Shown piece by piece: positions 3,547-59,395 of a stretch of 64,000 bases of DNA. Both the position numbers and the translations under genes were made by a program. Source of the DNA: Gammaproteobacteria bacterium (GTDB taxonomy: Bacteria > Pseudomonadota > Gammaproteobacteria > HIGHO2-12-38-15); NCBI GenBank assembly GCA_016218405.1, contig JACREE010000014.1, positions 4,988-68,987 of the forward strand. The letters run 5' to 3'. Position 1 is the stretch's first letter. The number at the start of each line of letters is the position of its first letter. A model generated the notes under the pieces. That model was not told where the DNA came from and made no database searches. It saw nothing but the letters and a program-made list of their open reading frames with translations.

Positions 3547-4011
3547 TTATGACAAGTTATAGGAAAACAAATCGTTAGACGCACCACCGCCAGTATTTTC
3601 AAGCGCCAAAACAATAGGGCCCGTGCAATGTGAGTCTAGGAAAGTAGGAGACCATTGATTATTTATCGTTTGCATCTCAAACACACAGGTTCCCAAAACT
3701 TCTGCCGGGCTTGAGGAGGTGGGATCAACATACGTGTAGGTGGCCAGTGTATGTATTTCAGTATTATCAAGCAGACCAAGCCAATCCTCTTTCTCGCCAT
3801 AAGTCATATTAAAAATTTTCACATCTTGCGTATTTGCAGTGATGGTGGCGGGTGGAGACATACTCCCCTCCCCTGATACAAACTGATAGGAAAGCATCGT
3901 CATCACATAGTTCGATTGGTTATTAACAGCCCCGACAACATGAGATTTAGAAAATGGGTTATAAGCAAAAGCCGCTTGGCACCCCATCGCCAATACAACA
4001 ACAAATAACAT
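3547..4011 (-). CDS. hypothetical secreted protein
   Basis: Internal start gives MLFVVVLAMGCQAAFA, a signal-peptide-like N-terminus. No known motif. Confidence 0.35.
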   Translation of the reverse strand: MLFVVVLAMGCQAAFAYNPFSKSHVVGAVNNQSNYVMTMLSYQFVSGEGSMSPPATITANTQDVKIFNMTYGEKEDWLGLLDNTEIHTLATYTYVDPTSSSPAEVLGTCVFEMQTINNQWSPTFLDSHCTGPIVLALENTGGGASNDLFSYNLS

Positions 4012-4096
4012 GGAAAAATATTTATTCACTTTTTCAGCTCCACATAAGTTAATTAGGACAACTATTGTACCGACATCCAAATCATTTCACCAGGCT

Positions 4097-6460: not shown

Positions 6461-6548
6461 CAAAAAGACCAATGTTTGTTCAAAATAAGTGTCGAAGAAT
6501 AATTTTTGTCGTATTATACGCCTCATGTTTCTCAAGAGGTATTAAATC

Positions 6549-9500
6549 ATGACCAAACCCATCGTCATTCAAGGCGTTTCAAAACAAAAAGCTCATTTTG
6601 TAGGCTGGGTCAGCAAAACGCATTTCCACATCTTGGACATCAGACAAAATCCCACCTTTGCTTGCGTCAAACAGCTGTTGCAACCAGAAACCCTCTCACA
6701 ATCTACACTCGCGGAGCGCAAAGCCGTATTTTCTATTCTCAAGGAAATAGATCATCTGGGCCTTACCTTTCTCCAATTCGCCATACTTGCTTTAGAGGAC
6801 GATGACAGTGTCAAAGAGGTTTTAACACGGCTCGTCGCTCATGAAAATGAGGATGTCAATGCGCTTTCAACACTCACTCACGACTCTGCTTTACACATCG
6901 CGACTCTCCTCAACTTCCCAAAAACAATGGACGCACTTTTAGAATTAGGCGCTGTACCCGACATTATTAATGACGCAGGTTATCCCCCTCTGGCCTTAGC
7001 AGTTTATCTCGACTTTAGTGGCCATCTTGCCCATCCTTTATTGACACATCACAATATTGATCCGCTCATTCCATTTAATGGTGCTGATCCTTTTAGAGAA
7101 ATCCTCACCCTATCCGACCCCGTCATTGTTTCGGCTTTTTTAAACCACCCTATCGTTGGAGAAGAATTAACTGATCTTGTCGATGAAGCAGGCGGCGCCA
7201 GCGTGGTGCTCGGACAACTCTTTGAGCTTTTCCTCCTCACAAAAACCCGAGGTGACTCAGTAAGAGCACAAAATTTTCTGTCTATCTTAACTTCTTTGGT
7301 AGAAAAAGGACTGGATCCCTATGAACAATCGAATGCTGATTCGCCCAGCTTAATCATGCTCTCGATTTTTCATAAAGAGCCGCGTGTGTTTGACGCCGTT
7401 TTTATCGCAGAACGAGATATTTCTGTCTCTCGCACAAACTATCACTGCGTGGATCTTGTTCTTCAATGCGCCGATTTACCCTTCTTTAAACATATCGCAC
7501 GTACCCAAAAACCCTATCTTAATTATCTCATGCAAACTGACCCGCATTTTGCGGTCAAAGTGGCTCATTCGATGCTTGTTTATAATCATTTTAAGGCTCT
7601 CGACTGGCTATTTTTAGATTATCCAAATTTGGCACACATCGATATCAGCCCTTTGTCAAACGGAGGCACGCTCCTATTCAGCGCCGTACTTCGAGGTTTA
7701 TCTCAAAGTGTCTTGGCCCTTTGTCAACGCGGCGCCAACCCTAATATCGCCCTCACAGGTGATTATTATGGACCCGGCTCCAACAAAGTGGCTCTACCTA
7801 ACAATTTTCCAGCTCTTGTGTTTTCACCCAGCATTTATTCAACTTTTCGCGTTAAAAAAGGGGCGACTCCTTTACGCATTGCACTTTTGAATCGTGACTG
7901 GGACAATGTATTTACCCTTTTATTTTACGGCGCTAAATTTTCGTTACATGACAAAGAAGCCCTTCACCCCGTACTACTTGCACTTAGATATAAAAAAATA
8001 GAGTTGATTCGCCTCATTTTAAAAAAAGCATCACCACAACAAGAACGAAAAATATTGCTTTACTTTATCGCTAATAAAATCGCAGCTTATCGATTGGACA
8101 CAAAATTCCTTGTGTTAGAGGCCCTCAAAGCCAACCTACCTTCTTTACTTAAAAAATTAATTTCAACTCACCAAACACATCTTTACCGCGCCACAAAACG
8201 AACCAGAACAATACACTATACCGTCTTACCTCAACGTACCCACCTTTGGATTGAAAATTCAAAAGGGCGAAGTCTATTACACATCGCGCTGTTACTCACT
8301 CCACCCAAAAAAGAAAAAGAAAAAACTGCTTTCCTTAAAAACCAACACAAATGCATACAACTTTTAATAAACGAAATGAAAAAAAGAAACAGCGCTCGTT
8401 ATCAAAAATCAGTGGAAAACATTTTATTTTCGATCCACATTCATCCTCAACATACCGCCCAAATTCTCGAACTTTTAGCCCCCAAAGACCCCCTCGTCAT
8501 TTTAGCCATCCTCGATAAATTCGCCAGCCCAGGAAACACCATTGAGCGCTATTCTGTGATCAGGGAAATCATGCATGTCATTGAGCCCAGTGCATTATTA
8601 CGCCTAGCCAAACAACACGAAAAAACAAATCTAGCACAGTTTGTCACTCAGGAAATGCGTAACTCTATGCCTGTTGCTGATACTTCACCCACCACCACCT
8701 CAACTTCACCTTTAACCATTTTATCTACACCTAAAGCACAACCCAAACCTAAGCAACCTGCATCCACCTCACCCAAACAGGCTGTCGATTCAGCACCCAA
8801 AGATACCCTGTCCCTCTTTATTCAACACACAGCTGATAAGTTACTCACCTTAGCCTTACCAGCTAAAAGACCTTTTTCTCCTTTAGACAGGGCCTATTTT
8901 AATTTTTACTTTTTAAGATTGCTGAAACTCATCAGATCAACCCTTTTAACAGATAAAGATATCGTCTTTAGTAAACAAGTACCCTCTCATTATGTGAGGC
9001 ACCAACAAAAAAGAACGCTGGAGCTGTGTATTGCAAGTTTCATGTCACCCCAAACAGTGATCACAGAGGAAGAACAATCAAATATCATGAGATTTGTTAA
9101 AGAAGATTTACCTAATTTCGAACTTTTTATCCTTCATCTTAAAGAATTAAACTTTGAGGATCGTTGCTCAGAAGAAACAAAAGCCATACAAATGGCAGTG
9201 AACTTATCTACCTGCAGCGATGCCATTCTCGCCCGAACCATACTGCCTTATTTAGACGCCCTCAAAGAGGCATTGGAGATCAAAAAACTTTCTCAAACAG
9301 AATTATCTGTTTTTTTGTGCAATTATTTTATCCAGCTTGCTCCTTATCTTTCTCAGCTCAATATCAGAAGCGTCAGTTTGAAAGACACACTTCAAGCTTG
9401 GATAACACATTGCACTGCCCTCAATGAATCCCGCGCTTTTATTTTTCTGCCCGAAGAAGCCGGCTTTTTCGCACAACACAATCAAAAACGCTTCAACGGC

Positions 9501-20429: not shown

Positions 20430-22832
20430 TCAAGCGACCGCACAAACGCGAGGTGCTGCATCAGGTTCTTGACGATCTTCTCTCCTCGCTGCTTCAACTG
20501 CACAAGACGTCGGTGTTGGAAAAAAGCCACAATTTTTGGGTGCAGCAGAAGGTGTTATCAACGATAATGCTCGATGAAGTTCCGCTGACAATACTTCTTC
20601 TTTCTGTTGATGTTGTTTAACCACTTGTACTTCAATCGCTTCTCTCACAGCATGCACAACCTGTCTGTAACTTGCGCTGCTTGATGACGATGGAGCATTC
20701 GTTGACGAATCAACAGTATCAGATAGCTCTGGCACAATACACCTGATTGTTGTTTTCACAGCAACACCCTTATCATTCCCATTGTTATCATCCTGGGGAG
20801 GAGAAGGCGGGGCAGAGTTCGCGTTATTTCCATTGTCACCCCCCTGGGGAGAAGGCGGCGTACCTTCATCCTGAGTATTTGGCACACCCTGCGCTTTTCT
20901 CTTCGCCATAAAAGTTTGGATGCTTGCTTTTATCCCTCTAAAGAACTTATTCACTTCTTTGACAGCGGTTTCAATAAATTCCATGTATTCACGGAAAGTA
21001 TCCGCAAAAGATTCTGCACCAGCCAAAGCACCCAAGGCAGCCCCCGAACCTTTCGCTGCAGGAAACACATTGCCAATCACATTCCAAAATAAAAACTTGA
21101 GAAGCACCACACCCACAATGATCGTTTTCACTATTTTAGATTTATTGACATAACGCTCCCCACGCCATGCTTCTTTGGCTCGACGAATAATATCTAAGAC
21201 ATCGTTTGTCAGCGTTTTTGCATTATCTTTTGCCGTGTCAGAATGGAATTTCACTTCACCCAAGAAAGAGAAAGCGGCCACAGCCATTGAAATACCTTGA
21301 CACACCAACAGGGGTATTTCATGCAATTTCATGAGCATTTCAGAAATAGTTTGAAAACCACTGTACACGTTTAAAGCACAGCCCAAACACGCCACCACAA
21401 AAAATCCAACAAAGAAAAGTGCCGTGAAAGCCATACGTAAACCATAACGCAAATCAGACTCTTGGTGATTTTCTACTTCCCCAGATACACAACGCGGCAC
21501 CAATCTACGTTTAAATAAATTTTTGAAAAAATCCACAAATTTTTCACCCACGTGTCCTTTACTGGCGCTCACCATGCCACGCAACATCACTGCCGTGAGA
21601 ACAAGCACTGACACCACCGCCACAAAAGCAAAGAGAGGTGGGAAAGCAGCACTCGTCACGCCCAATGCAGTCAAAATACTAATGGCACCTGTGTAGGCAA
21701 AAACACCCGCCACCGCCCCTGTCGCCAACGCCATGAAAAATCCCACCCCCAACGCGGCGCGCTTAAGTGCACTCAACCCTTTAAACATATTAAATAAGTA
21801 GGCAAAAACACTAGGCGTGTTTTTACTGGATAAAGCATAATTGACCGAAAATCCGCCTAGAAAAACAAAGACGGGTATCACCAGTGGAATAGCAGGAAAA
21901 ACGATCAACAACATACCCGCCGTTGCACAGGCACACCCCAACGCAAAAATTAACGCAAAAATTTTACCTATCACATAGAACACTTTGTTAAACTTGCTTA
22001 AGGTAAAAAAAGCTTCGTCTTCAATTTTTTTCTTGGTTTCTTTATCATCCAACACCTTCAAGATGCGTTGACGAATGGCGTTGGCCATTGCTTTTTTTCT
22101 TTCACTTAACTGAAGAGCGGTTTGATAGGCGTCTTCATATACTTGTTCCGCTTTCTTTTTATCCGCATCCGCTTGACGCAAATAATTTTCGCGCGCTGCT
22201 CGACCCTTTTCTGATGCATAGATAGCCGTACTTCCTGTTCTCGTTAAGAAATCCACGAGCATGTCTTCTGAAACTTGTTCATCTAACCCTTTTTTCTTCG
22301 CTTCTTTTAGCTTGTTTTTTTCTTCTTCCAGCAGCGCTTCGAAGCGTGCTTTTTTATCGCTCTCCGAAAAAGTGTTTTCGCTGAGTTCTGGCAACAAACG
22401 TCTGCGTGCGCGGCATTCAACTTCATCTTTATGTCGTTTAGCGGTTTTTTCATCTTCCCCATCTTCATTAGACAAAATGTAAAAAGCTTTGATGACTTCA
22501 CGAATAAAGGCATTTTCTGCTTTGTTATAAAGTGGTTTTTTAAATGTGTCTCGCCCTGCTGCTTTGAGTTTTGCACCTTTCCCTTTTGAGGCATTCAATT
22601 CAAATGAACCCCATTTCACAAACTCTCCCTGAGGCACACTCCCTCTTTCCAGGGCAGGCAACACTTCTTCTTCTGCCAATATGATTTCTCTCAAGGCATG
22701 TCTTTTCGAACCAATCTTAATTCGATCAGGTGGCGAAAAAAATTTCTTGATGCGTTGAGCCCATGTTCCTTTATCTGCACTTTCGGAAGAAGAAAGGGCT
22801 TCTTCTACAATCAACTTCGCTTCAACACCCAT
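20430..22832 (-). CDS. large hypothetical membrane protein (800 aa): charged/coiled-coil N-terminal region, multi-TM core, Pro/Ser/Asn-rich C-terminal tail
   Basis: 800-codon stop-free ORF. Lys/Glu-rich N-terminal region, four or more strongly hydrophobic segments mid-protein, and a low-complexity tail (PPSPQGGDNGNNANSAPPSPPQDDNNGND). No catalytic motif recognised. Confidence 0.5.
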   Translation of the reverse strand: MGVEAKLIVEEALSSSESADKGTWAQRIKKFFSPPDRIKIGSKRHALREIILAEEEVLPALERGSVPQGEFVKWGSFELNASKGKGAKLKAAGRDTFKKPLYNKAENAFIREVIKAFYILSNEDGEDEKTAKRHKDEVECRARRRLLPELSENTFSESDKKARFEALLEEEKNKLKEAKKKGLDEQVSEDMLVDFLTRTGSTAIYASEKGRAARENYLRQADADKKKAEQVYEDAYQTALQLSERKKAMANAIRQRILKVLDDKETKKKIEDEAFFTLSKFNKVFYVIGKIFALIFALGCACATAGMLLIVFPAIPLVIPVFVFLGGFSVNYALSSKNTPSVFAYLFNMFKGLSALKRAALGVGFFMALATGAVAGVFAYTGAISILTALGVTSAAFPPLFAFVAVVSVLVLTAVMLRGMVSASKGHVGEKFVDFFKNLFKRRLVPRCVSGEVENHQESDLRYGLRMAFTALFFVGFFVVACLGCALNVYSGFQTISEMLMKLHEIPLLVCQGISMAVAAFSFLGEVKFHSDTAKDNAKTLTNDVLDIIRRAKEAWRGERYVNKSKIVKTIIVGVVLLKFLFWNVIGNVFPAAKGSGAALGALAGAESFADTFREYMEFIETAVKEVNKFFRGIKASIQTFMAKRKAQGVPNTQDEGTPPSPQGGDNGNNANSAPPSPPQDDNNGNDKGVAVKTTIRCIVPELSDTVDSSTNAPSSSSSASYRQVVHAVREAIEVQVVKQHQQKEEVLSAELHRALSLITPSAAPKNCGFFPTPTSCAVEAARREDRQEPDAAPRVCAVA

Positions 22833-22998
22833 GAGAAAGATTCCTTTAACATTAGAAAAATAAGAGTTTTTAAACTTCTACCATTATTACGCTCACCCCA
22901 TTAACAAAATGTTAAGTGGAATAAAAAGTTCAAAATTTTATGCCGGATAGACAGGAAGAACAAGCTTGGTATGTCAGCTTCGGAATAATCTAAGACAA

Positions 22999-32051: not shown

Positions 32052-32843
32052 TTGGCCCTATCCATGAAACCATCATCAAATATTACATTTATTTCATTTT
32101 CCACCATCGTCAGCAAAGAGATCACGCGCTTTATTCGAATTTGGTCTCAAACACTGCTGCCGCCCGCCATTATAATGGCCTTGTATTTTATTATTTTTGG
32201 TAACTTTGTTGGCTCACAGCTGCCACTCACCCAAGGTTACACTTACATGCAATTTATTGCACCCGGTCTTATTATGATGGCTGTTATCACCAATGCTTAC
32301 AACAATGTGGTTTCTTCTTTTTTCACACAGCGCTTTCAAAAAAGCGTTGATGAAATTTTAGTTTCTCCTACACCCAACTGGGTCATATTACTCGGCTTCT
32401 CCACGGGAGGAATCTTGCGTGGCGTACTGGTTGGCATTATTGTGGGATTAATCGCATTATGCTTCACTCACTTACACTTCCAGCATCTTTTCGTTACTTT
32501 CATCGCAGCCTTACTTACGTCTATCTTTTTTTCTTTCGCAGGTTTTACAAATGCCTTGTTTGCTAGAAAATTCGATGACGTTGCCATTATTCCTACTTTT
32601 ATTCTCACGCCGCTTACTTACCTGGGCGGTGTTTTTTATTCATTGAATCAACTTCCTCCACATTGGCAAACTTTCGCAAAACTTAACCCCATTATTTACA
32701 TGGTAGACACTTTTCGTTATGGTTTATTAGGTATCACCGACATCAATGTTTATTTTTCACTCGGCTTGTTATTCTTACTCACGTGTCTTTTGTTTTTTGT
32801 TAACCTTTATTTGCTCAATAAGGGCGTGGGATTAAAACCATGA
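32052..32843 (+). CDS. ABC-2 type transporter permease (YadH-like)
   Basis: Six hydrophobic segments, 263 aa, immediately downstream of the ATPase. Confidence 0.8.
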   Translation: MALSMKPSSNITFISFSTIVSKEITRFIRIWSQTLLPPAIIMALYFIIFGNFVGSQLPLTQGYTYMQFIAPGLIMMAVITNAYNNVVSSFFTQRFQKSVDEILVSPTPNWVILLGFSTGGILRGVLVGIIVGLIALCFTHLHFQHLFVTFIAALLTSIFFSFAGFTNALFARKFDDVAIIPTFILTPLTYLGGVFYSLNQLPPHWQTFAKLNPIIYMVDTFRYGLLGITDINVYFSLGLLFLLTCLLFFVNLYLLNKGVGLKP

Positions 32844-33811
32844 CACTCGTCACCAACGAACACACGGGTGTGTTACTCATTAATTTAGGTACACCAAGCG
32901 CACCCACACCTCAAGCTGTTAAATGTTATTTAGCTGAATTTTTATCTGATCCCTTGGTTGTTTCAATTTGGCCACCGCTCTGGAAGTATTTACTTCACAC
33001 CCTCATTTTACCTTTTCGATCAAAAAAATCGGCCGCTTTATATCGCTCTATTTGGCTACCTTCGGGTTCTCCCTTAATGGTGTATTCCCTCACGCAAACC
33101 CAAGCCTTACAAAACAAAATTATCGCTTCTCACTTACACACTCACGTTACTTTAGCCATGCGTTATGGCAAACCCTCCATTTCAGAAGGCATTCAGGAAC
33201 TGCGCTCCTTAGGGATAAAAAAAATAACGGTTATTCCTCTTTATCCACAATACGCTCATGCCACAACAGGCTCTGCAAAATTTGCTTTTCTTTCAGCATT
33301 AGAATCTCAACACACCAGTTTCGACTATAAATTTATTGAGGATTTTTATGCTCATCCTCTCTATATAGAAGCATTGGCAACACAGATCGAAAATAGCTGG
33401 AAAAAACGTTCGCGTGGTGAAAAATTATTATTGTCTTTTCATGGCTTGCCCAAAACACACAGCCAACAAAGTGATTCTTATGAAAAACAATGCCTCAACA
33501 CAGCGCATCTTTTAGCCGAACGCTTACATTTAAATAAGGTGGGCTATGAAATTGTCTTTCAATCACGATTTGGTTTTCAAAAATGGTTACAACCTAGCTG
33601 CGCAGCGGCCTTGAAAAAATTAGCGGAAAACGGTTGCCAAAGCGTTGATATTTTTTGTCCTGGTTTTGTTGCTGATTGTTTAGAAACATTAGAAGAAATA
33701 GCGGTTACAAATAAGAAAATTTTTTTAAATGCAGGCGGGCGTTCTTTTCATTATATTCCCGCCTTAAACGCCTCCCCCCTATTTATCGAAACACTTTTTT
33801 CATTGATATGA
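32840..33811 (+). CDS. hemH: ferrochelatase
   Basis: N-terminal GVLLINLGTP signature. 323 aa. Overlaps the permease stop. Confidence 0.85.
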   Translation: MTLVTNEHTGVLLINLGTPSAPTPQAVKCYLAEFLSDPLVVSIWPPLWKYLLHTLILPFRSKKSAALYRSIWLPSGSPLMVYSLTQTQALQNKIIASHLHTHVTLAMRYGKPSISEGIQELRSLGIKKITVIPLYPQYAHATTGSAKFAFLSALESQHTSFDYKFIEDFYAHPLYIEALATQIENSWKKRSRGEKLLLSFHGLPKTHSQQSDSYEKQCLNTAHLLAERLHLNKVGYEIVFQSRFGFQKWLQPSCAAALKKLAENGCQSVDIFCPGFVADCLETLEEIAVTNKKIFLNAGGRSFHYIPALNASPLFIETLFSLI

Positions 33812-33826
33812 GAGAATACAACGGAC

Positions 33827-34981
33827 TCAAGCTCTTGCCAACGCTCTATGACGGCAACGTGCTGTCTCCATATCGTTATAAGGTTGGATGATGAGCCTTC
33901 CTAAACGACCCCCCGTCAAGACGGATTCAATCGCCTTGTCCGACATAAATCCCATTTCTTCAAGCGCAGGTTTTATCGTTTTGGCATCCAAAATAAACAA
34001 CCCTCCCTCCTCCTCTTCATTTATTTTTTTTGAAATTAACGATAAACAAGCTCTCGCGACATTTAATTTATTTTTTTGACTACAATCTGAACGCCAAAGA
34101 CGCTGCACAGCCAGGTGATAATCAGCCCCCTCCAAGGTACGTAGTTTGATGTATTCCTCCAAAAACCACTGCGTCCTTTTATATAAAGCTTGGCGAGATG
34201 TCACACCTTCTCCTGACACAAACAAAAGATAAAAATTTAGATTATCCATCTTCAATTCTTCAGGACGTATTATTGTTAGGCGAGCGCCTGCCAAGATCAG
34301 ACGTATCATCAAACGCACACTCCACTCACTCCCTGAATGAGCATAACGACAAACAAGCAACACCTTTTCCAAAAAAGAATATCGCTTCTCTCTCCTTTCA
34401 GCAGGAGGTTTAGCGTGAACATCCGCCCCCACACTCAACGCACTACAGACAGCATGGTACACTTCTCCTTCTATCCCCTCGCCTCTGCGCAATAATCGAT
34501 AAAGAAAAGGATTCCCAGCACTGTCCCTTGCATCAACATCAGCCCCCCATCGTTTTAATTTTTCTAATTTTTTCTTTTTTTCTTGAGTCAATTCTTTGCC
34601 TTGACTAATTTCCAACATAAAAGCCACATTAATTAACTCAACAGACGCATCATGCACCCTTTCTCTATTTTCTTTTTTATTTTGCAAAATTTCAATTTTC
34701 AACAAAGCTTTTATTTCTTCTTCTGTTTCTTCCTGACCAATGAGCTGCAAAATTACTTTTGCAACATTTTCCACTGAAAACCCAATGACACCGCGATTTA
34801 CCCATTCTTCAATAGGAACAGGCTTTCGTTGACGAACAGCCGATAAATAGAGCGTCACCCACCTTGAATCAGGCACAAGTTTTTGCGATAAATCATCATC
34901 GCTCAAGTTCTTCAAGGCTACTAACTCACCAGTTAACTCGCTTTCCCCCAGATACTTTATTTGATTTGCTCCACCTGACAT
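33827..34981 (-). CDS. ankyrin-repeat-like protein, candidate effector; 3' end of ABC gene overlaps its start
   Basis: Ankyrin loop signatures WGADVDARDSAGNPFLYRLL and SVGADVHAKPP. Otherwise novel. Start set at MSGGANQ; the track ORF extends to 35017. Confidence 0.45.
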   Translation of the reverse strand: MSGGANQIKYLGESELTGELVALKNLSDDDLSQKLVPDSRWVTLYLSAVRQRKPVPIEEWVNRGVIGFSVENVAKVILQLIGQEETEEEIKALLKIEILQNKKENRERVHDASVELINVAFMLEISQGKELTQEKKKKLEKLKRWGADVDARDSAGNPFLYRLLRRGEGIEGEVYHAVCSALSVGADVHAKPPAERREKRYSFLEKVLLVCRYAHSGSEWSVRLMIRLILAGARLTIIRPEELKMDNLNFYLLFVSGEGVTSRQALYKRTQWFLEEYIKLRTLEGADYHLAVQRLWRSDCSQKNKLNVARACLSLISKKINEEEEGGLFILDAKTIKPALEEMGFMSDKAIESVLTGGRLGRLIIQPYNDMETARCRHRALARA

Positions 34982-35661
34982 AAGCACCCCTCCTCCATTC
35001 GCAAAACACGCCCACAACGCTCTGCCACCTTTTCTTCATGCGTAATCAACACCACTGTCATACCATCATGTCGATTAAGAGACAGAAACAGAGACATAAT
35101 TTCATCGCTTGTACGCCTATCTAAAGCGCCTGTCGGTTCGTCAGCCAATAATAAATGGGGTTCTCCCACCAAAGCACGCGCAATTGCCACACGCTGTTGT
35201 TGTCCTCCTGATAATTGCGTTGGTTTTCTATCGTGAAATTCTTCTAATCCTACTTTCTTTAGCATTTTAAATGATTGTTCTTTGATTTTTTCGGGAGAAA
35301 GATTGCGGTACAACAACGGTAATCCCACATTTTGCAAAGCGGTCATACGCGGAAGCAAGAAAAAAGATTGAAAAACAAACCCAATGGTTCGATTTCGTAA
35401 TGCAGCTAATTCATCTTCTTCATACGAGAATACATCACATTCATTCAGATAATATTTACCTGATGTAGGGTGATCTAAAACACCCAAAATATTCATCAAT
35501 GTTGATTTACCCGATCCCGACTCACCTACAATACCGACAAATTCACCCGTTTCAATCTGCAGATTCACTCCATTTAACACGGGGAATGCAACATCATTCA
35601 GATAATAATTTTTACAAATGTTTTCAAGTTTTACGATGGACAAGAATATGATCTCCTGCAA
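34957..35661 (-). CDS. ABC transporter ATP-binding protein (MacB/LolD/DevA-type ATPase, no fused permease)
   Basis: Walker A GESGSGKST, signature LSGGQQQRVAIARA, Walker B LLLADEPTGALD. 234 aa. Confidence 0.8.
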   Translation of the reverse strand: MQEIIFLSIVKLENICKNYYLNDVAFPVLNGVNLQIETGEFVGIVGESGSGKSTLMNILGVLDHPTSGKYYLNECDVFSYEEDELAALRNRTIGFVFQSFFLLPRMTALQNVGLPLLYRNLSPEKIKEQSFKMLKKVGLEEFHDRKPTQLSGGQQQRVAIARALVGEPHLLLADEPTGALDRRTSDEIMSLFLSLNRHDGMTVVLITHEEKVAERCGRVLRMEEGCLCQVEQIK

Positions 35662-36784
35662 TTAATCCTTTGGTGACTTCTACATCTTGCAAGGTGGTTT
35701 GCCCTGTCATAACAGGTACTTCAATGATTTTTTTATTTGTTTCACGATCAAACATTTTTATTGTACTTAAACCATTTTTCACCATCACAGCATTAATCGG
35801 CACCAATATTGTAGGTTCATGCGCCACAATAATTTTAACCATGGCACTCATGCCCACCGCGATTTTTTTGCGATCATCTTCACTGATATGTTTCACATCC
35901 ACTCTAACAGGAAAGGTAGGTAAAACACTGCCCACACCTGCCAAGGCTTGCGCACTGACATCTGCCACCTCTCCCTCTAAAACAATGCCTGGAAATCCAT
36001 CACTTGTCACTACGGCTTTTTGCCCTACTTTGATTGAGTTAATGTCCACTTGATTGACAGACACTGTCAGACTGATCCCCGTCATATCACCAATAGAGAC
36101 CAACACCTGTCCTGCTTTAACTTGACTACCTACCACAACTTTCGTTGAACTTCCTGCTCCCTCTTCTCCCGTGCCTGCACCCTTTTCAGGCAACAAGGCT
36201 ACCCCATCCGCGTTTGCATTTAAATTCAATATATCAAACTGTGTAAGCAAGGCTTTATTCACCGCCTCACGATCACTTATCATGAGCGACTTCGCTTCTT
36301 CTAATTTTATATTTGCTTTTTGCAGTATTTGGCTCAATGACTGCTCTGCCTGAAAATAACTTAGGTAAGCATCATTGTAATTTGTTTGGGATGCATGATA
36401 CTCATTCGTTGAGATAATACCTTCTTTATGCAACACTTCATCTTCATCTAATTTAGTTTGATTGTTATCATATTGTTCTTTTGCTTTAAGATAAGAAGTT
36501 AAGGATTCACGATAATCTTTTTCTAATTGTGCCGAGCGGAGTGTAAAAAGCGGCATCCCTACTTTAAGTTGCTGACCGTATTCAAAATATTTTTTCTCAA
36601 TCACCCCATCCACTGGACTTATCATCACAGCCAATTTCAAGGCTTGCACCGTTCCACTAAAAAATAATTCATTCACAATAGGACGTCGCTGCACCGCATA
36701 AACAACATAGCCTTTTGGCGCTTCAAATTTTCCCTTACACCCCAGCAAAGAGAGGAAAATAAACGCTATTATCCATTTCTTCAT
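35624..36784 (-). CDS. HlyD/MacA-family periplasmic adaptor (membrane fusion) protein
   Basis: Lipobox N-terminus (LLGCKG), coiled-coil hairpin, then beta-barrel/lipoyl-like motifs. 386 aa. Confidence 0.75.
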   Translation of the reverse strand: MKKWIIAFIFLSLLGCKGKFEAPKGYVVYAVQRRPIVNELFFSGTVQALKLAVMISPVDGVIEKKYFEYGQQLKVGMPLFTLRSAQLEKDYRESLTSYLKAKEQYDNNQTKLDEDEVLHKEGIISTNEYHASQTNYNDAYLSYFQAEQSLSQILQKANIKLEEAKSLMISDREAVNKALLTQFDILNLNANADGVALLPEKGAGTGEEGAGSSTKVVVGSQVKAGQVLVSIGDMTGISLTVSVNQVDINSIKVGQKAVVTSDGFPGIVLEGEVADVSAQALAGVGSVLPTFPVRVDVKHISEDDRKKIAVGMSAMVKIIVAHEPTILVPINAVMVKNGLSTIKMFDRETNKKIIEVPVMTGQTTLQDVEVTKGLIAGDHILVHRKT

Positions 36785-36809
36785 ACATACCTCATAAACT
36801 TCTTATAAC

Positions 36810-38309
36810 TCATTTATCTCTAAGTTGAATATCCCAGGTATTTAAGGTTGTCCCTATCAAAAATTGAAGCTGTGATAAGGCATTTAAATAATTTATTTGA
36901 TTAGATACCACCGCCAATTCTGATGAGGTAAGGGAATTTTGAAGATTGCTCACTTCAAACATCGTCACACGACCATAGGATAATTTTATTTTTGAAATCT
37001 CTAGATTGCGTTTTGCCAAATCACGCGCCTGCTTGGCCAGCTCCACCTGTTGTTTCAATAATTTTAAATTGGTAATAGCATTAATCACTTGAGTTTCTAA
37101 ATTACGCCTGCTTTGCGCAATAGCCACTTCCTGTTGCTCAATCGCTACTTTTGCTTGTAATACCGCCTGCTTTTTCGCAAAATTTCGAATAGGCACCGAT
37201 ACTTCAACTTGCACGTTTTGTTGGCTGTCATTACTTCCGTTTAAGTTGGACATATTCAAACCTTGACCATCACCCAAAGTATTCGACAAGGTTAAATTTA
37301 GAGAAGTACGTTCTTGATCTTTTGCCACCACTAAATTTCGACGATTTTGCCCTTGCTGAATTAATGACGCTTGGTAGGCAAAGTTATTCGCTAAACCCAC
37401 TTGCATTGCTTCTTCTAACAAAGGCACTTTCAAGTTTTGTGTATCAATATCTGACATCACATCAATAGGCGTACAAGGATTTAATCCAATGTCATTTAAT
37501 AAGGTTTGCTTGGCTTGCGCTAACAAATTTTCACTTTGCTTGATGCTTAAATTGTCTTGCGCAATGGCTGCTTTTGATTGAACGGCTTCTGCAGGTGCTC
37601 GCTGACCACTTTTAATTTGCAACTCAAGTTGACGATAAGTTTTTGAATCATTTTCTAAAGTTAAGCGCTGAATTTTTAATTGATTTACCGCTGCAACCAC
37701 TTGTCTATAGTCAGAAATAATTATTGTAATCGCTTGCGCTGTTGTATTTTTTAAATTAAGACGACTGAGAAATTCAGAATCACGCGCATTACGTATCCCT
37801 GCCAGCGTCACTTCTTCCCCAAATCCTTGCATTAAAGGTTGCGTCACACTCAAGGTTACATTGGTGGTATTTATCCCTTGCGTACTCGTCAGGTTGTTCA
37901 CTTGCGCTGAAAATTGCGTACCCAAACTGTTATTCAGTGTGGTGGTTTGTGTAACTTGAGTACCACTTGAGTAAATAGAAATATTGTTTGTAATCGAACG
38001 GCCATACTGCCCGCTGGCTGTCAACGCATATTGTAATTCAAAATTATTTTCTGCCACCCTGAGCGCAAACTTATCTACCACGCGCTGTAATTCTTGTGAT
38101 TGAATACTGGGGTTATAACGCAATGCCAGCAGCACAGCTTCTCTCATGGATAAGCGCTTAGCAGGCAAGGGGGATGCCGTCTGAACAGGCTCTGCTGCTA
38201 CCCCTGCATGACATACCCATAGGAGAAATAAAAAAACGGCCCCTACCCTGCCTCTTTTTACAAACCGGGCCCTATGAGGTAAGTCCCAATGATTTTGCAT
38301 AACCCTCAC
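36810..38309 (-). CDS. TolC-family outer membrane efflux protein
   Basis: 499 aa, signal peptide, two internally repeated long coiled-coil/beta segments typical of TolC/OprM-type outer membrane factors. Confidence 0.7.
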   Translation of the reverse strand: MRVMQNHWDLPHRARFVKRGRVGAVFLFLLWVCHAGVAAEPVQTASPLPAKRLSMREAVLLALRYNPSIQSQELQRVVDKFALRVAENNFELQYALTASGQYGRSITNNISIYSSGTQVTQTTTLNNSLGTQFSAQVNNLTSTQGINTTNVTLSVTQPLMQGFGEEVTLAGIRNARDSEFLSRLNLKNTTAQAITIIISDYRQVVAAVNQLKIQRLTLENDSKTYRQLELQIKSGQRAPAEAVQSKAAIAQDNLSIKQSENLLAQAKQTLLNDIGLNPCTPIDVMSDIDTQNLKVPLLEEAMQVGLANNFAYQASLIQQGQNRRNLVVAKDQERTSLNLTLSNTLGDGQGLNMSNLNGSNDSQQNVQVEVSVPIRNFAKKQAVLQAKVAIEQQEVAIAQSRRNLETQVINAITNLKLLKQQVELAKQARDLAKRNLEISKIKLSYGRVTMFEVSNLQNSLTSSELAVVSNQINYLNALSQLQFLIGTTLNTWDIQLRDK

Positions 38310-38369: not shown

Positions 38370-39401
38370 TTAATGAGAAGAAGGGAGCACACCCAGGGCT
38401 TTCAAACGTTCTTTAATACTTGGGTGTGTTGAGAAAATCCCACTCAAAGAGGTCACAGGTTCAATACCCGCCTGAATAGGATCGTAAATATAAGCCGCAC
38501 GACGCACATCTTCATGCGCCGTTCTTGCATATTGCTGACGGTAATTTTCTTTATTTGTCTGATGATCTTGATCAATTTTCATCAGCGCTTTTGCCAAAGG
38601 AGAATTATCTCGCATTAATTCAACACAACCTGCATCCGCCATGTATTCACGCAAACGACTTAAGTACAGCATGAGCAACAAAGTGATCAAGGGCAATAAA
38701 AATCTCAACAACATGATAATAACAACTAATCCTTGGCCACCCTTACGATCACGCTCATCACGACCATACAACACGCTATAAAAAAGCATGTCTACAACCA
38801 TCAGGATAAGGTTGCTCAACACAGAAGCAGTTAAAGTCAGCTTGATATCCATGTGTCGAATATGGCTCAACTCATGCGCCATCACCGCTTGCAACTCATC
38901 TCGATCCAATTTTTCCACCAAACCACGCGTGATAGCCACCATGGCTGATTTATCACTGTACCCACTTGCAAAAGCATTCATGTAATCAGCATCTATCAAA
39001 AACACGCGAGGCACAAATTGCAACCCCGCAGCCAATTTGAGTTCTTCAACCACGTTATAAAGTTGCGTTTCTGATAAATTTTTAGCTGTCTTGGGCGTTA
39101 TTTCTTTGTATTCCGTACCAAAAAGCATGATTTTGTCATACAAAGCATAGGTTACCCACAGCGACACCAAACTGAGGATTATCAATATCGACGTTGCAAA
39201 AGGGAAAAGCTGCAAGCTAAGCAACGCTTGGAACAGGCTACTTGGGGAGGCTTCGGGGTAAGTCTGCGAGTAAAAAAGTACATCTAATAACAATCCCACC
39301 ATCGCATAAATCAACACGAACACGATAATAACCCATCGTGTTCGCGACTGATTCCGACGGAGTTGACCTCGCCAATCAGGTACGCTGCTATAATCCATCA
39401 T
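38370..39401 (-). CDS. M48-family zinc metallopeptidase (HtpX-like) with membrane segments
   Basis: HExxH motif (AVMAHELSHIRHMD), multiple TM helices, 343 aa. Adjacent to lemA. Confidence 0.75.
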   Translation of the reverse strand: MMDYSSVPDWRGQLRRNQSRTRWVIIVFVLIYAMVGLLLDVLFYSQTYPEASPSSLFQALLSLQLFPFATSILIILSLVSLWVTYALYDKIMLFGTEYKEITPKTAKNLSETQLYNVVEELKLAAGLQFVPRVFLIDADYMNAFASGYSDKSAMVAITRGLVEKLDRDELQAVMAHELSHIRHMDIKLTLTASVLSNLILMVVDMLFYSVLYGRDERDRKGGQGLVVIIMLLRFLLPLITLLLMLYLSRLREYMADAGCVELMRDNSPLAKALMKIDQDHQTNKENYRQQYARTAHEDVRRAAYIYDPIQAGIEPVTSLSGIFSTHPSIKERLKALGVLPSSH

Positions 39402-39404
39402 AAG

Positions 39405-39986
39405 TTAAAGTTTCACGGTGTAATTTTCTTTTTGCTGAACTTGATCACTAGGCAAAGCCCAATAGACAAAGCTTTTATACAGTTTAGGGAAAAGCCCCAC
39501 CACTATTGATTCAAAAAATGATTTTTGAGCTACATTGTACTGCTCAATACTGTCGTTATACGCTTGCTTAGCAAACGCTAATTTGTTTTCTGTACTGACA
39601 ATTTCTTCCTGCAACTGCAACACATTTTGATTAGCTTTAAGATCAGGATACTGCTCAAACGTTAAGTTTAAGCCCGACACTACTTTAGAAATACCATCTT
39701 CCGCTGCGCGTCGCCCCGACTCATCACCCGCGGCTTCTGCCTGCTGCGCCTTATTACGCAATGCCACCACGTCTTTGAGTGTTGTCTGTTCATAATCCAT
39801 GTATTTTTTAACAACATTGATGAGCGATTCAAATACTTTGTAACGTCGATCTAGCTGAATATCGATTTGTTTTTCATTGTTGTTCACCGCTTCTATCAGG
39901 GCAATGAGTTTGTTGTAAATCATGACCATCCATGCACCCAACGCCAGGAATATAATCAGCAACAGGATTACAATCGTCATCTTCAA
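39405..39986 (-). CDS. lemA: LemA family protein
   Basis: N-terminal TM helix plus the conserved LemA core (MIYNKLIALIEAVNNNEKQIDIQLDRRYKVFESLINVVK...LAFAKQAYNDSIEQYN). Confidence 0.8.
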   Translation of the reverse strand: MKMTIVILLLIIFLALGAWMVMIYNKLIALIEAVNNNEKQIDIQLDRRYKVFESLINVVKKYMDYEQTTLKDVVALRNKAQQAEAAGDESGRRAAEDGISKVVSGLNLTFEQYPDLKANQNVLQLQEEIVSTENKLAFAKQAYNDSIEQYNVAQKSFFESIVVGLFPKLYKSFVYWALPSDQVQQKENYTVKL

Positions 39987-55372: not shown

Positions 55373-55448
<76 letters not shown>

Positions 55449-56294: not shown

Positions 56295-57623
56295 CTACAT
56301 CAACAAAAAACGCCACAAAGGTAATATTTTTACATCATTTTTTTGCTTATCATCCCCACCCAGCGCATGACTTAACACAACAATTTTTTCAGAACCCGGA
56401 AATAATTTTGCAACATCATTAAGATTAGAAATTTCATGGGGCTTTAGCTCAATATTGTCTTGATTTCCACAGACTACTTGTATTAACTTTTTCACGGAAT
56501 TACCTTCTCGCACGACAAAATCAATCTCTCCTCCTTTATTAATGTAAAATAAACCATCTTGTACTTGACGCATAAGCCCCTGGTATACGGCTGTTTCAAT
56601 CACATGCCCTATATCCAAGGAATTAGAAAGAGTTAAAACTTGACGAAACCCCAAATCAATCGCATGAATTTTTTTGGGGTTACGATTTCTTTCCGACACT
56701 TTAAGGCTGTAATAAGGCAGAAAATCAATCAAAAATGCCTCTTGTAAATAATCACAATAAGCATGAGCTAAATCTAATGAGACATCGAATAATTTTGAAA
56801 TTCGTTGAAATGAAACCAAGCTTGCTGTATGCGTAAGTAAATGCACAGCCAATCCTCTTAACAACATTACGTCACGAATATTGTGTCTTATTGCCACGTC
56901 TTTAAATAAAATATCATCAAAATATTGCTTCAATAACAACTCTTTTCGTAACTCATTCTCAGAAATAACCACCTCAGGAAAACCACCCCATTTGAGATAT
57001 TTTTTAAGCGCGTGATGAACCTCTGGCCTTGCGGGGAGCAACAAAGGTTGCTTAGGAGATTCGATCCCCTCAAAACGTAAAAATTCTTTAAAGGATAAAG
57101 GGAATACCCTAAAAGAAATATGTCGACCCGTTAACAAAGTTCCTAATTCTCTAGACATCAATTTCGATGAAGAACCCGTAATAAATATTTTAATATTTTC
57201 TGTGTCATTTCTTGCGCGAACCCATCTCTCCCATTGAGCTACATTTTGTATTTCATCTAAAAACAAATAAATTTTCCCGACAGGAAATATATTCTCACGA
57301 TAATTTTTGTAAATTTTTTCCAATAAATCGACATTGAGATGCGGAGAAAAAGCAGGTTCCTCAAAATTAACATGCAACATCGATTCAGGAGCAACCCCTT
57401 TCTCAGTTAATAAATCCATAATTTGGAACAAAATAGTTGTTTTACCTGCGCGCCTTGGACCCGTGAAAACAACGATTTCTTTCGTTTCTAAAAAAAGCCT
57501 CACCTTAGATAAAATATCTCGCCTTTCCCCCCCTGACAACATTGCCCCGCCCCAGCGATTCCACTTAGCTAAAACCTCAAACAAAGACATATCGCCTCCA
57601 TATATGATGGTTATATCAATCAT
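56295..57623 (-). CDS. AAA+ ATPase with DUF4143-type C-terminal domain
   Basis: Walker A GPRRAGKTT, Walker B LFLDEIQ, C-terminal nuclease-like DUF4143 region. 442 aa. Confidence 0.7.
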   Translation of the reverse strand: MIDITIIYGGDMSLFEVLAKWNRWGGAMLSGGERRDILSKVRLFLETKEIVVFTGPRRAGKTTILFQIMDLLTEKGVAPESMLHVNFEEPAFSPHLNVDLLEKIYKNYRENIFPVGKIYLFLDEIQNVAQWERWVRARNDTENIKIFITGSSSKLMSRELGTLLTGRHISFRVFPLSFKEFLRFEGIESPKQPLLLPARPEVHHALKKYLKWGGFPEVVISENELRKELLLKQYFDDILFKDVAIRHNIRDVMLLRGLAVHLLTHTASLVSFQRISKLFDVSLDLAHAYCDYLQEAFLIDFLPYYSLKVSERNRNPKKIHAIDLGFRQVLTLSNSLDIGHVIETAVYQGLMRQVQDGLFYINKGGEIDFVVREGNSVKKLIQVVCGNQDNIELKPHEISNLNDVAKLFPGSEKIVVLSHALGGDDKQKNDVKILPLWRFLLM

Positions 57624-57668
57624 ATTATACTAACATATGATGGTTATATCAATCATATATTAGTATAA

Positions 57669-57974
57669 CACTCAACCTCTGCAGCCACACGAATTTTCAG
57701 ACAAAAAATAACGTTAATAGACTGGTATAGTCGTTATGTTTTAGATTGGGAATTAAGTATTACGTTGGAAGCTGATTTTTGTATTGATACGTTGTCGAGA
57801 GTATTAGCCGCTGAAAAATGTAATATTTTCAACACAGATCAAGACTCTCAATTTACAAGTAAAAATTTCACTGGATTATTAAAACAAAATGATATAAAAA
57901 TCAGCATGGATGGAAAAGGCCGCGCCTTGGACAAAGTACACAGCTTATTTAATGAATGGAAATATGCAAGGTAA
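57669..57974 (+). pseudogene. IS3-family transposase (rve integrase core) remnant
   Basis: The frame encodes ...DWYSRYVLDWELSITLEADFCIDTLSRV...NTDQDSQFTSKNFTGLLKQNDIKISMDGKGRALDKV, i.e. the middle and end of an IS3 OrfB-like integrase. It lacks the N-terminus and HTH, and the DN has degraded to DK. Confidence 0.5.
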
Positions 57975-57979
57975 TACTT

Positions 57980-59395
57980 ATGGATCTTAGTCAAGTTAAA
58001 GCGCTGATACAGCAGGGTGAGTCACATAACCTTGAATTCAAGAAATCTACCACACAATTAAAACCAGCATGCGAAACAATCTGTGCATTTTTAAATACGA
58101 AAGGTGGAACTGTCCTGATTGGAGTTAAAGATGATGGCCAAATCATCGGGCAGCACTTGACAGATAATACTCGTCAGGAAATCGCTCGTGAAATTAAAAA
58201 AATTGAACCGCCTTCAAACGAGCAGATAAATATTGATTATGTACTTTTTGATGATAATAAATTTGTAATTGTGATCGATGTTATTGCTGGTGGTCATGCA
58301 CCTTATACTTACGATGGTCGTCCGTATGTACGTATCGAGTCTTCAACAGGATTGATGTCGCAACATCTCTATGAGCAATTACTCGTTCGACGTGGCCAAC
58401 TAAATCATGCGTGGGACACGCAGCTAGCGAAAGGATATACAATTAATTCATTGGATCATGAAGACATTCGTCGAACCATAAAAGAAGGTGTTGATAAACA
58501 TAGAATTGGAATTGAAGTGCTTAATTATGATATCGATCATATATTGCGCAGTTTAGAATTAATCAAGAATGATAAACTGGTTAATGCTGCTGTTGTACTC
58601 TATGCGAAAGACGTAAAGCCCGATTACTCACAATGCATGATCAGATTGGCTAGATTCAGAGGAATCGATAAATTAGGCGATTTTATTGATAATCAACGGG
58701 TGTATGGTAATGCTTTCCGAATTATATCTGCCGCATTGGAATTTGCCATGCGTCATTTACCGATCGCTAGTTTTTTTGAACCTGGCAATATACAAAGAAT
58801 CGATCAGCCGGCTGTTCCACAACTTGCGCTTAGAGAAGCTTTAGTTAACGCCATTTCTCATCGCGATTACACCAATCATTCTGCAACAATTTCATTGGCA
58901 ATCTATGATGACAGGTTGGAGCTATGGAATAACGGTGTATTGCCACCACAATTGAGTTTTGCTGCTTTGCGAAAAAGGCACGAGTCGTATCCTAGGAATA
59001 AAACCATAGCGACTATTTTTTATGAACAAGGGTGGGTTGAAGGCTGGGGAACCGGAACAACTCGAATGATAGGGTATTGCCAAAAAAATGGTACACCCGA
59101 ACCTGAATTTGAGGAATATTCTGGTGGTTTTGTGGTTATTTTTCGATTTAAAGAGCCAATGGGCGGGGGAGGAAAAATAAGTAATATTGAAAAACCAGCT
59201 TTAAACAAAAGACAGGAAAAAATACTCGAAATTCTAACAGGTGGAAAGGCGCTAAGCGCAAATGAAATATTTGATCAACTAGATGATGTTGCTAGTTTAC
59301 GAACTGTTAAAGCTGACTTGGCAGCATTGAAAAAATTGTTATTGCTCGAACAAATTGGGAAAGGCAGAGCAACGGTTTGGAAGGTTAGAAAATAA
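57980..59395 (+). CDS. AlbA_2 (Schlafen-like divergent AAA) + HATPase_c_4 + C-terminal wHTH protein ('RecG-like putative transcriptional regulator')
   Basis: N-terminus LIQQGESHNLEFKKS...ICAFLNTKGGTVLIGVKDDGQI is the AlbA_2 signature. C-terminal HTH-like KRQEKILEIL. 471 aa from the ATG at 57980. Confidence 0.7.
   Translation: MDLSQVKALIQQGESHNLEFKKSTTQLKPACETICAFLNTKGGTVLIGVKDDGQIIGQHLTDNTRQEIAREIKKIEPPSNEQINIDYVLFDDNKFVIVIDVIAGGHAPYTYDGRPYVRIESSTGLMSQHLYEQLLVRRGQLNHAWDTQLAKGYTINSLDHEDIRRTIKEGVDKHRIGIEVLNYDIDHILRSLELIKNDKLVNAAVVLYAKDVKPDYSQCMIRLARFRGIDKLGDFIDNQRVYGNAFRIISAALEFAMRHLPIASFFEPGNIQRIDQPAVPQLALREALVNAISHRDYTNHSATISLAIYDDRLELWNNGVLPPQLSFAALRKRHESYPRNKTIATIFYEQGWVEGWGTGTTRMIGYCQKNGTPEPEFEEYSGGFVVIFRFKEPMGGGGKISNIEKPALNKRQEKILEILTGGKALSANEIFDQLDDVASLRTVKADLAALKKLLLLEQIGKGRATVWKVRK

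Follow-up and report, generated by a model that had tools for sequence, protein, structure and literature searches.

A MacAB-TolC/LitOPAI-type transporter locus without a linked permease gene in an uncultured Legionella/Coxiella-like clade

All characterized nucleotide-binding domains (NBDs) of the MacB type act through an FtsX-fold membrane domain (PMC5985334), and a gene set that encodes such an NBD next to a channel and an adaptor, with no permease, raises the question of how it works. Such a set is found in a 64,000-nucleotide (nt) stretch of contig JACREE010000014.1 (positions 4,988 to 68,987; assembly GCA_016218405.1) from a gammaproteobacterial metagenome-assembled genome (MAG); this whole stretch is here called the window, and positions are given within it. 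The genes for a TolC-family channel, a periplasmic adaptor, and a MacB-type ATPase are followed there by an open reading frame, ORF4, which an earlier note made from the sequence alone had described as ankyrin-like. The system is of a known kind (MacAB-TolC/LitOPAI type) in a variant organization, in which a whole clade has lost the permease gene from the operon. The elements of the locus are as follows; lengths of proteins are given in amino acids (aa).

36810..38309, minus strand: TolC-family outer-membrane factor (OEP), 499 aa; Pfam OEP, TIGR01844
35624..36784, minus strand: periplasmic adaptor (membrane fusion protein, MFP), 386 aa; HlyD_3, HlyD_D23, TIGR01730
34957..35643, minus strand: MacB/LolD-type (type VII ABC) nucleotide-binding subunit, 228 aa; ABC_tran
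33827..34981, minus strand: ORF4, 384 aa (MBI5447446.1, HY939_01795); no family match
34957..34996, minus strand: ATPase/ORF4 junction, read directly from the sequence

The pump genes and the missing permease

Pfam, NCBIfam, and PDB matches bear out the families that had been proposed for the three pump proteins (TolC family, HlyD/MacA type, and MacB/LolD/DevA type). The channel protein has a signal-like hydrophobic segment at its N terminus and matched Pfam OEP in two stretches (6.3e-27) and TIGR01844 over residues 54 to 487 (6.5e-15). The adaptor matched HlyD_3 (3.2e-14), HlyD_D23 (4e-12), and TIGR01730 (RND_mfp) with 98.5 bits, above the cut-off of 94.9; its PDB matches were ZneB, EmrA, MacA, and MexA, and MacA and DarC matches were also obtained. 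The N-terminal sequence MKKWIIAFIFLSLLGC of the adaptor reads as a lipobox, and the protein is probably a lipoprotein. The ATPase matched Pfam ABC_tran (3e-35) and scored highly on several NCBIfam models (LolD, 241.8 bits; MacB, 225.6; YbbA, 219.5; DarD, 215.3; and DevA, 196.6), all below the equivalog cut-offs. Its top match in the PDB was Spr0694 (5XU1_A, 1.4e-64), followed by MJ0796, LolD, the MacB NBD, and YbbA. Walker A, Q-loop, signature (LSGGQQQR), Walker B, and H-loop are intact. No transmembrane (TM) segment was predicted in the ATPase, and those of its homologues that have been solved with a membrane partner (Spr0694, LolD, the MacB NBD, YbbA, and BceA) all pair with FtsX-fold domains.

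Two other identities were considered and rejected. A type I secretion system (HlyB-HlyD-TolC) does not fit, as the ATPase has no membrane domain and is of the MacB type rather than the HlyB type; the adaptor scored 29 bits on TIGR01843 (type_I_hlyD), whose cut-off is 208.65. The ATPase was also below the cut-offs of the LolD models (241.8 against 307.75 for TIGR02211 and 217.5 against 360 for NF008639), and TM prediction and tblastn revealed no LolC/E within the 64-kb window, so the locus is not a LolCDE system.

The FtsX-fold permease with four TM segments and a MacB periplasmic core domain that would be expected beside such an ATPase is neither fused nor adjacent to it, and none was found in the window. 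When three orthologous permeases were compared with the window in all six frames by tblastn, no match was obtained (best E value, 0.47, outside the pump locus), and a permease pseudogene or overprinted remnant beneath ORF4 was rejected on this basis. An FtsX domain is encoded by one gene of the 64 kb alone, the cell-division gene ftsX (1458-2387, minus strand; FtsX_ECD and FtsX domains), which is overlapped by an ftsE-like ABC ATPase gene (2359-3039, minus strand). TM prediction, tblastn, and the FtsX-domain scan of the window thus agree with the earlier statement that an FtsX-like permease is lacking. The view that this is a nonstandard arrangement also holds, since a TolC-MFP-MacB-type ATPase set without a linked permease is seen both in the window and in relatives (see below). 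As for the other ORFs of the window with multiple TM segments, one encodes an ABC-2 permease that comes with an ATPase of its own, another the HtpX-like peptidase, and a third an 815-aa protein. The last (20430-22877, minus strand) carries about eight TM segments, predicted within residues 296 to 600, and has no Pfam match at E ≤ 0.1. It was rejected as a hidden permease, having no match to FtsX or any other Pfam family and no similarity to the permeases.

The four genes are tightly packed and all lie on the minus strand, so that the co-directional set described in the earlier note is real. The OEP gene starts with GTG at 38309, although translation may in fact begin a few codons further downstream. 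Its stop codon is separated from the start of the adaptor gene by 25 nt. From the alignment with relatives, TTG at 35643 (228 aa) is the more likely start of the ATPase gene than TTG at 35661 (234 aa, the length given in the earlier note); with the favored start, the gene overlaps the 3' end of the adaptor gene by 20 nt. The ATPase gene ends with TAA at 34959-34957. The ATG at 34981-34979, which is the start in both the NCBI and Logan gene calls, is most likely the start of ORF4, and the 25-nt overlap of the two genes, read from the sequence, agrees with what had been claimed. The Shine-Dalgarno sequence of ORF4, GGAGGAGGGG, is located at 34996-34987, 5 nt before the ATG and inside the ATPase gene. 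Over 33704-35197, the window is 100% identical to Logan contig L001, which was assembled independently from the same run, and the ATPase-ORF4-hemH junction is therefore not misjoined.

Gene order, selection, and a variable slot in the relatives

Homologous loci were gathered by an adaptor search, and their contigs were then inspected. Among the distant homologues, L007, L008, and L009 (adaptors 31% to 39% identical to that of the window) come from Coxiellaceae-type and other uncultured gammaproteobacteria, and in all of them the OEP-MFP-ATPase genes are directly followed by a gene for a 392- to 401-aa permease with MacB_PCD and FtsX domains. The same four-gene order was seen in L013 to L015, L017, and L093 (found via the permease profile, and including a Coxiellaceae MAG and a Legionellales MAG) and in the alpha- and deltaproteobacterial MAGs L018 to L021. 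The permease family extends to Coxiella burnetii as well. The permease-bearing order of these distant orthologous operons indicates that the four-gene operon is the ancestral state.

The close homologues have adaptors 52% to 74% identical to that of the window. Their loci are flanked by the same genes as in the window:

32840..33811, plus strand: ferrochelatase (hemH); Pfam Ferrochelatase, 2.4e-104
38370..39401, minus strand: HtpX-like M48 peptidase; Pfam Peptidase_M48, 1.5e-35
39405..39986, minus strand: LemA; Pfam LemA, 2.7e-36

Full synteny with the window was observed in L002, L003/L004, L005/L006, and L011, the order being mutS, two OmpA-like beta-barrel genes, lemA, the htpX-like gene, OEP, MFP, ATPase, a slot of variable content, hemH, an ABC-2 transporter, and rmuC. 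L010 and L097 are short contigs covering the OEP-to-slot portion alone; at the end of L097, a partial convergent ORF aligns by eye with the C terminus of ferrochelatase. No permease gene follows the ATPase gene in the window, L010, L097, L003/L004, L005/L006, or L011, and no remnant of one was detected by tblastn in the window or in L002 to L006. The contigs of L002 and L012 stop at the ATPase gene and are thus uninformative on the permease. The loss of the permease gene from the operon is thus a shared derived feature of an uncultured Legionella/Coxiella-like clade. Independent assemblies from NCBI, ENA, and Logan show this layout, and its recurrence in six independent relatives shows that it is no assembly accident.

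The boundaries of the locus are constant within the clade. On the downstream side, hemH is convergent with ORF4 in the window, with 15 nt between the stop codons, and has the same position in L003, L005, and L011, where it delimits the variable slot. On the upstream side, lemA and the htpX-like gene are co-directional with the pump genes and directly precede them; this order is the same in L002, L003, L005, and L011, and in L005 (4937-7997) the stop of the M48 peptidase gene abuts the OEP start. In L012 and in the complete systems, by contrast, the channel, adaptor, and ATPase genes (here, the trio) lack a linked lemA-htpX pair. The lemA, htpX-like, and pump genes, five or six in number, may form one transcription unit. 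A promoter/terminator consensus scan of 33.4 to 40.3 kb gave nothing exceeding the shuffled expectation, and Rfam and tRNA scans had no match within the pump locus.

Comparison of the window with L010 gave proportions of nonsynonymous differences (pN) of 0.131, 0.160, and 0.141 for the OEP, MFP, and ATPase genes, respectively, against synonymous proportions (pS) of 0.66 to 0.80 (0.717 for OEP), which are saturated; the OEP protein is 79% identical to its L010 orthologue. The housekeeping htpX-like neighbor shows the same pattern (pN, 0.19 to 0.27). The motifs are retained in every ATPase of the clade, with GxSGSGKS as Walker A, FQSFxLLP as the Q-loop, LSGGQQQRVAIARAL as the signature, LLADEPTGALD as Walker B, and ITHE as the H-loop. 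Relative to the complete systems, the identities are 29% to 36% for OEP, 31% to 39% for MFP, and 48% to 57% for the ATPase, and those of the complete systems among themselves are 30% to 45%, 33% to 45%, and 52% to 59%, respectively. These comparisons indicate that the trio is under strong purifying selection and that its rate of change did not accelerate after the loss of the permease. The decayed pump that was one of the possibilities raised earlier is contradicted by them: the three genes are intact, constrained, and no more diverged than their permease-bearing orthologues.

The slot between the ATPase gene and the convergent hemH, where the orthologous operons hold the permease gene, is a drop-in site for unrelated lineage-specific genes. 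The window and L010 carry the ORF4 family. In L097 (3435-4208; adaptor 68% identical), the slot encodes a 257-aa polytopic membrane protein that is DUF975-like only at an E value of 0.4 and unrelated to ORF4 or the MacB permeases. L003/L004 and L011 have a gene for a Tyr- and Cys-rich signal-peptide protein of 123 to 125 aa (L003, 9870-10247; L011, 9855-10226), located 30 to 45 nt downstream of the ATPase gene and 62% identical between the lineages; L003/L004 additionally have a PIN/PhD toxin-antitoxin pair and a DUF188 gene (L003, 10318-10957). L005/L006 have four tandem secreted paralogues of ~150 aa with no Pfam match (62% to 74% identical; L005, 9887-11763) and a gene for a 508-aa Fic-domain protein (L005, 11960-13486). 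The Fic, PIN/PhD, and DUF188 genes are typical accessory or mobile cargo. The 123- to 125-aa protein could be a dedicated periplasmic cargo of the pump, as small proteins delivered by Sec, among them enterotoxin STII, are exported by MacB-type pumps (PMC5985334). The secreted family of L005 was rejected as pump-specific cargo because the window has a copy of it far from the pump (3547-4086, minus strand; 26% to 37% identical). The conservation of the four-gene block, which the earlier note had proposed to check in relatives, is therefore partial: the trio is kept, and ORF4 is kept in L010 alone, at 26% identity.

ORF4 and its ankyrin-like motif

ORF4 is a real gene, as it is a long ORF with a strong Shine-Dalgarno sequence and has a syntenic homologue with conserved blocks. 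This homologue, P0259 (402 aa), is the sole one detectable by phmmer among 1.84 billion representatives; it is 26% identical over the full length (E value, 7e-14), and the blocks shared with ORF4 include RTQxFLEEY...EGA...C.Q.NKL..AR.CL. In a clustering of 5.8 billion proteins, ORF4 is alone in its cluster. P0259 occupies the same slot in L010, where the ATPase gene and the ORF4 homologue are separated by a gap of 48 nt; the overlap seen in the window is thus not conserved. Between the window and L010, ORF4 has a pN of 0.50 (0.13 to 0.16 for the pump genes) and a nonsynonymous rate (dN) of 0.82 (0.14 to 0.18 for the pump genes), a rate of evolution about five times that of its neighbors in the pump operon. 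The protein is predicted to be all-helical, with neither a signal peptide nor a TM segment. It had no Pfam match at E ≤ 10 and none in NCBIfam, and PHROGs gave no match for ORF4 or P0259.

The ankyrin-like element of ORF4 is a single motif, KKKLEKLKRWGADVDARDSAGNPFLY (residues 136 to 161; 34499..34576, minus strand), which resembles the helix-2/GADVNA/beta-turn part of an ankyrin repeat and is followed by a weaker second stretch (...SVGADVHAKP). In a profile search of the PDB, the matches to DARPins and consensus ankyrins were confined to 21 residues of the motif, and hhalign of ORF4 against a consensus ankyrin aligned 26 columns with a probability of 2% and an E value of 0.023. Genuine, Pfam-confirmed ankyrin proteins matched only ORF4 residues ~127 to 204 in phmmer with E values of 4.5e-8 to 1.4e-4, values that sum several repeats matching one short region of ORF4. 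The AlphaFold2 model had a mean confidence score (pLDDT) of 37.6 from the single sequence and 56.8 from the two-sequence alignment; it was confident for residues 11 to 100 only and below 50 over residues 149 to 261, and Foldseek found no match to it in the PDB at E ≤ 0.001. The tandem array of 33-residue helix-turn-helix units that makes up the ankyrin fold was not detected, and the poor model may hide a degenerate repeat or two. At the domain level the description of ORF4 as ankyrin-like is therefore not sustained, there being no match to an ankyrin hidden Markov model (HMM) at E ≤ 10 and no support from the fold. ORF4 is, moreover, absent from most of the relatives that keep the pump, the nearest one having a diverged homologue, and this combination is essentially what the earlier note had named as speaking against its own proposal. 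An ankyrin-repeat label is unsuitable for ORF4 in annotation.

With the ankyrin effectors of Legionella and Coxiella, ORF4 shares one GADVxARDxxG-type motif, lineage specificity, fast evolution, and a helical character, whereas it fails every ankyrin HMM and is without a repeat array or fold. It is tempting to speculate that ORF4 is a host-interaction protein, which would fit its fast evolution, its lineage restriction, and its eukaryotic-like motif. A role as a Dot/Icm (type IVB) translocated effector would be no more than an analogy to quickly evolving Legionellales proteins with eukaryotic-like features; no dot/icm genes were found among those ORFs of the window that were scanned against Pfam, which were a part of the total.

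Genuine ankyrin repeats occur elsewhere in the window, in a 1,066-aa ORF (6546-9746, plus strand; Pfam Ank_2 at 3.3e-9, with Ank_4, Ank_3, and Ank). The organism therefore encodes eukaryotic-like repeat proteins, and such proteins fit a host-associated lifestyle like that of Legionellales/Coxiellales.

Readings of the locus and comparison with known pumps

We favor, with a probability of about 0.6, the reading that the permease is encoded elsewhere in the genome, as the earlier note had offered among its possibilities, and that ORF4 is incidental co-transcribed filler. Of the four parts that make up a tripartite pump of the MacAB-TolC-like (type VII ABC) kind, the locus in this reading specifies three, the LitO-, LitP-, and LitA-like ones, and the ancestral gene for the LitI-like MacB_PCD+FtsX permease of ~400 aa was removed in the common ancestor of the Legionellales/Coxiellales-like clade. 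Strong selection on the three genes that remain makes it most likely that the pump continues to be assembled and that its FtsX-fold permease is provided in trans by either a relocated cognate gene or a shared paralogue; given this constraint and the need of characterized NBDs for an FtsX-fold domain, a permease from another locus is the simplest reading. ATP hydrolysis by the ATPase dimer would drive the permease's periplasmic domain, and periplasmic substrates would be expelled through the adaptor and the TolC-like duct, as in MacB-type pumps, which work by mechanotransmission on substrates collected in the periplasm (PMC5985334). The vacated site between the ATPase gene and hemH has been taken by unrelated lineage-specific genes. 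ORF4 is probably co-transcribed with the pump and functionally independent of it, and it is possibly a host-interaction protein.

Several points weigh against a pump completed in trans with ORF4 as a bystander. Purifying selection shows that the three proteins are used, not that they continue to act as an ABC pump, and the tight packing of ORF4 (25-nt overlap and strong Shine-Dalgarno sequence) could reflect a functional link. Furthermore, no permease was found from the MAG of the window or from any member of the clade. A permease profile was searched against 5.8 billion proteins, and the best 120 matches, all with at least ~48% identity, were listed: none of the 120 was tied by name or accession (MBI54474xx) to the MAG of the window, and the accessions of five RIFCSP/Rifle-type matches were far from the ranges of the four RIFCSP MAGs with a clade-type adaptor. 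The lack of a clade permease among these best 120 matches is weak negative evidence, MAGs being incomplete. One candidate, P0186, was rejected as the clade permease, as it sits in a complete four-gene operon of another organism. An adaptor scan of the contigs of GTDB representative genomes matched no relative, nor the window's own species. A scan of genome-collection contigs with the permease profile had no clade member among the matches listed; the same scan returned at least five Legionellales/Coxiellaceae-like loci, four of them complete operons and one a Legionella sp. locus. In this last locus (L016, 3582-5754; Legionella sp. UBA11403, DNVL01000253.1), the adaptor gene is directly followed by the MacB-type permease gene and no ATPase was detected on the 6.7-kb contig, a split opposite to that of the window.

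These results also bear on a trio that works without a cognate MacB-type permease, having been rewired to LolC/E, to another FtsX-family protein, or to a nonhomologous partner such as the HtpX-like protein, or with the ATPase doubling as LolD. The strong selection on the trio across the clade without a linked permease, the lack of a LitI-type permease of clade MAGs among the best 120 profile matches, and the tight packing of lemA, htpX, OEP, MFP, and ATPase, with the M48 and OEP genes abutting in L005, all point in this direction. We nevertheless regard such rewiring as unlikely: positive evidence for an alternative inner-membrane partner is lacking, LemA-HtpX and the trio are unlinked in L012 as well as in the complete systems, characterized MacB-type NBDs all use FtsX-fold membrane domains (PMC5985334), and the negative result for the permease covers only the best 120 matches from incomplete MAGs. 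It is likewise unlikely that the clade is truly without a cognate MacB/LitI-type permease, the trio being driven via a noncognate or nonhomologous partner or the ATPase being shared, e.g., with Lol; if this were true, however, it would be a new way to energize a tripartite envelope conduit, and the variable slot might supply lineage-specific clients.

A tie between ORF4 and the pump, with ORF4 as a cytoplasmic regulator or partner of the ATPase or as an exported cargo or effector, seems quite improbable. ORF4 lies on the same strand, overlaps the ATPase gene by 25 nt, and has a strong Shine-Dalgarno sequence within it; no terminator-like site was found between the two genes, and the nearest relative, L010, has a homologue at the same position. 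However, the overlap gives way to a 48-nt gap in L010, four other lineages of the clade keep the trio with unrelated slot genes, and the dN of ORF4 (0.82, against 0.14 to 0.18 for the pump genes), i.e., evolution that is about fivefold faster, argues that ORF4 does not coevolve with the pump. The ATPase is not an ABC protein of the type I secretion kind, and, because MacB-type pumps collect their substrates in the periplasm (PMC5985334), a cytoplasmic 384-aa protein with neither a signal peptide nor a TM segment is an implausible substrate. The dedicated export system linked to an ankyrin protein, which the earlier note had offered as a possibility, thus finds no support, all the more as ORF4 is rare in the clade. 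Decay of the trio, as what is left of a pump that ceased to work once the permease was lost, is very improbable. In favor of decay, the permease gene is absent without a detectable trace, but the three ORFs are of full length in seven independent clade genomes, all catalytic motifs are intact, and pN lies far under pS, matching the housekeeping neighbor and with no acceleration relative to the complete systems. Least credible is an assembly or binning artefact as the cause of the missing permease: the source is indeed a MAG, absent from the GTDB representative set that was searched, but a second assembler reproduced the ATPase-ORF4-hemH junction base for base, and the layout without a permease recurs in NCBI, ENA, and Logan assemblies from different samples.

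The closest studied relative of the window pump is LitOPAI of Legionella pneumophila (lpg2925-lpg2922), a kinship that rests on the architecture and on Legionellales/Coxiellaceae orthologues and not on the L. pneumophila sequences. LitOPAI is a MacAB-TolC-like transporter that is needed for intracellular replication and whose substrate is unknown (PMC11559062). The two have in common the order of channel, adaptor (381 aa in LitOPAI and 386 aa here), and separate MacB-type ATPase, as well as a Legionellales/Coxiellales-like host lineage, in which distant orthologous operons have the full LitO-LitP-LitA-LitI layout. They differ in that the operon of the window and of its whole clade has no gene for the LitI-type permease. 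With MacAB-TolC of Escherichia coli (5NIK, 5LIL), the likeness extends to an ATPase matching the MacB NBD (NF007826, 225.6 bits; 5NIK_J, 3.7e-53), an adaptor matching MacA weakly (9QGY_G, 7.4e-5), a TolC-family duct, and mechanotransmission on periplasmic substrates, which would be expected here too (PMC5985334). In E. coli, however, MacB is an NBD-permease fusion and tolC is not linked, whereas the window has a separate 228-aa NBD, a linked duct gene, and no linked permease. A split between NBD and TM domain is also found in Spr0693-0694-0695 of Streptococcus pneumoniae, whose Spr0694 is the best solved homologue of the ATPase, and in YknXYZ of Bacillus subtilis, but these Gram-positive systems have no outer-membrane factor, and their permease gene is adjacent to the ATPase gene. 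LolCDE and the cyanobacterial DevBCA resemble the window system in that its ATPase scores highly on the LolD (241.8) and DevA (196.6) models. These scores are below the respective cut-offs (307.75 and 295.8), no LolC/E or DevC is adjacent, and the accompanying adaptor and channel are those of an efflux pump rather than of Lol.

In its organization, the clade is a natural experiment, in which channel, adaptor, and ATPase are linked and constrained and the permease is unlinked or replaced, and it could show how much freedom type VII ABC systems have to swap their parts or to encode them in trans. Lineage-specific genes of secreted, membrane, and eukaryotic-like kinds accumulate in a hotspot after the ATPase gene. 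Should the permease merely be encoded at another locus, as is most likely, the operon is a gene-order curiosity of modest interest.

Two further observations were made in the window. Wherever clade members share the synteny, the pump locus is flanked by the ferrochelatase gene hemH, and protoporphyrin has been suggested as a substrate that MacAB-TolC exports (reviewed in PMC5985334); the adjacency is probably a coincidence. Between 55373 and 61429 there is what looks like a small tRNA-associated island, possibly related to defence: a tRNA-Phe gene (55373-55448) is followed by two AAA_14/DUF4143 ATPase genes (56295-57629, minus strand, and 60179-61429, plus strand), and a Schlafen AlbA_2/HATPase_c_4 gene is located at 57956-59395 in the same region.

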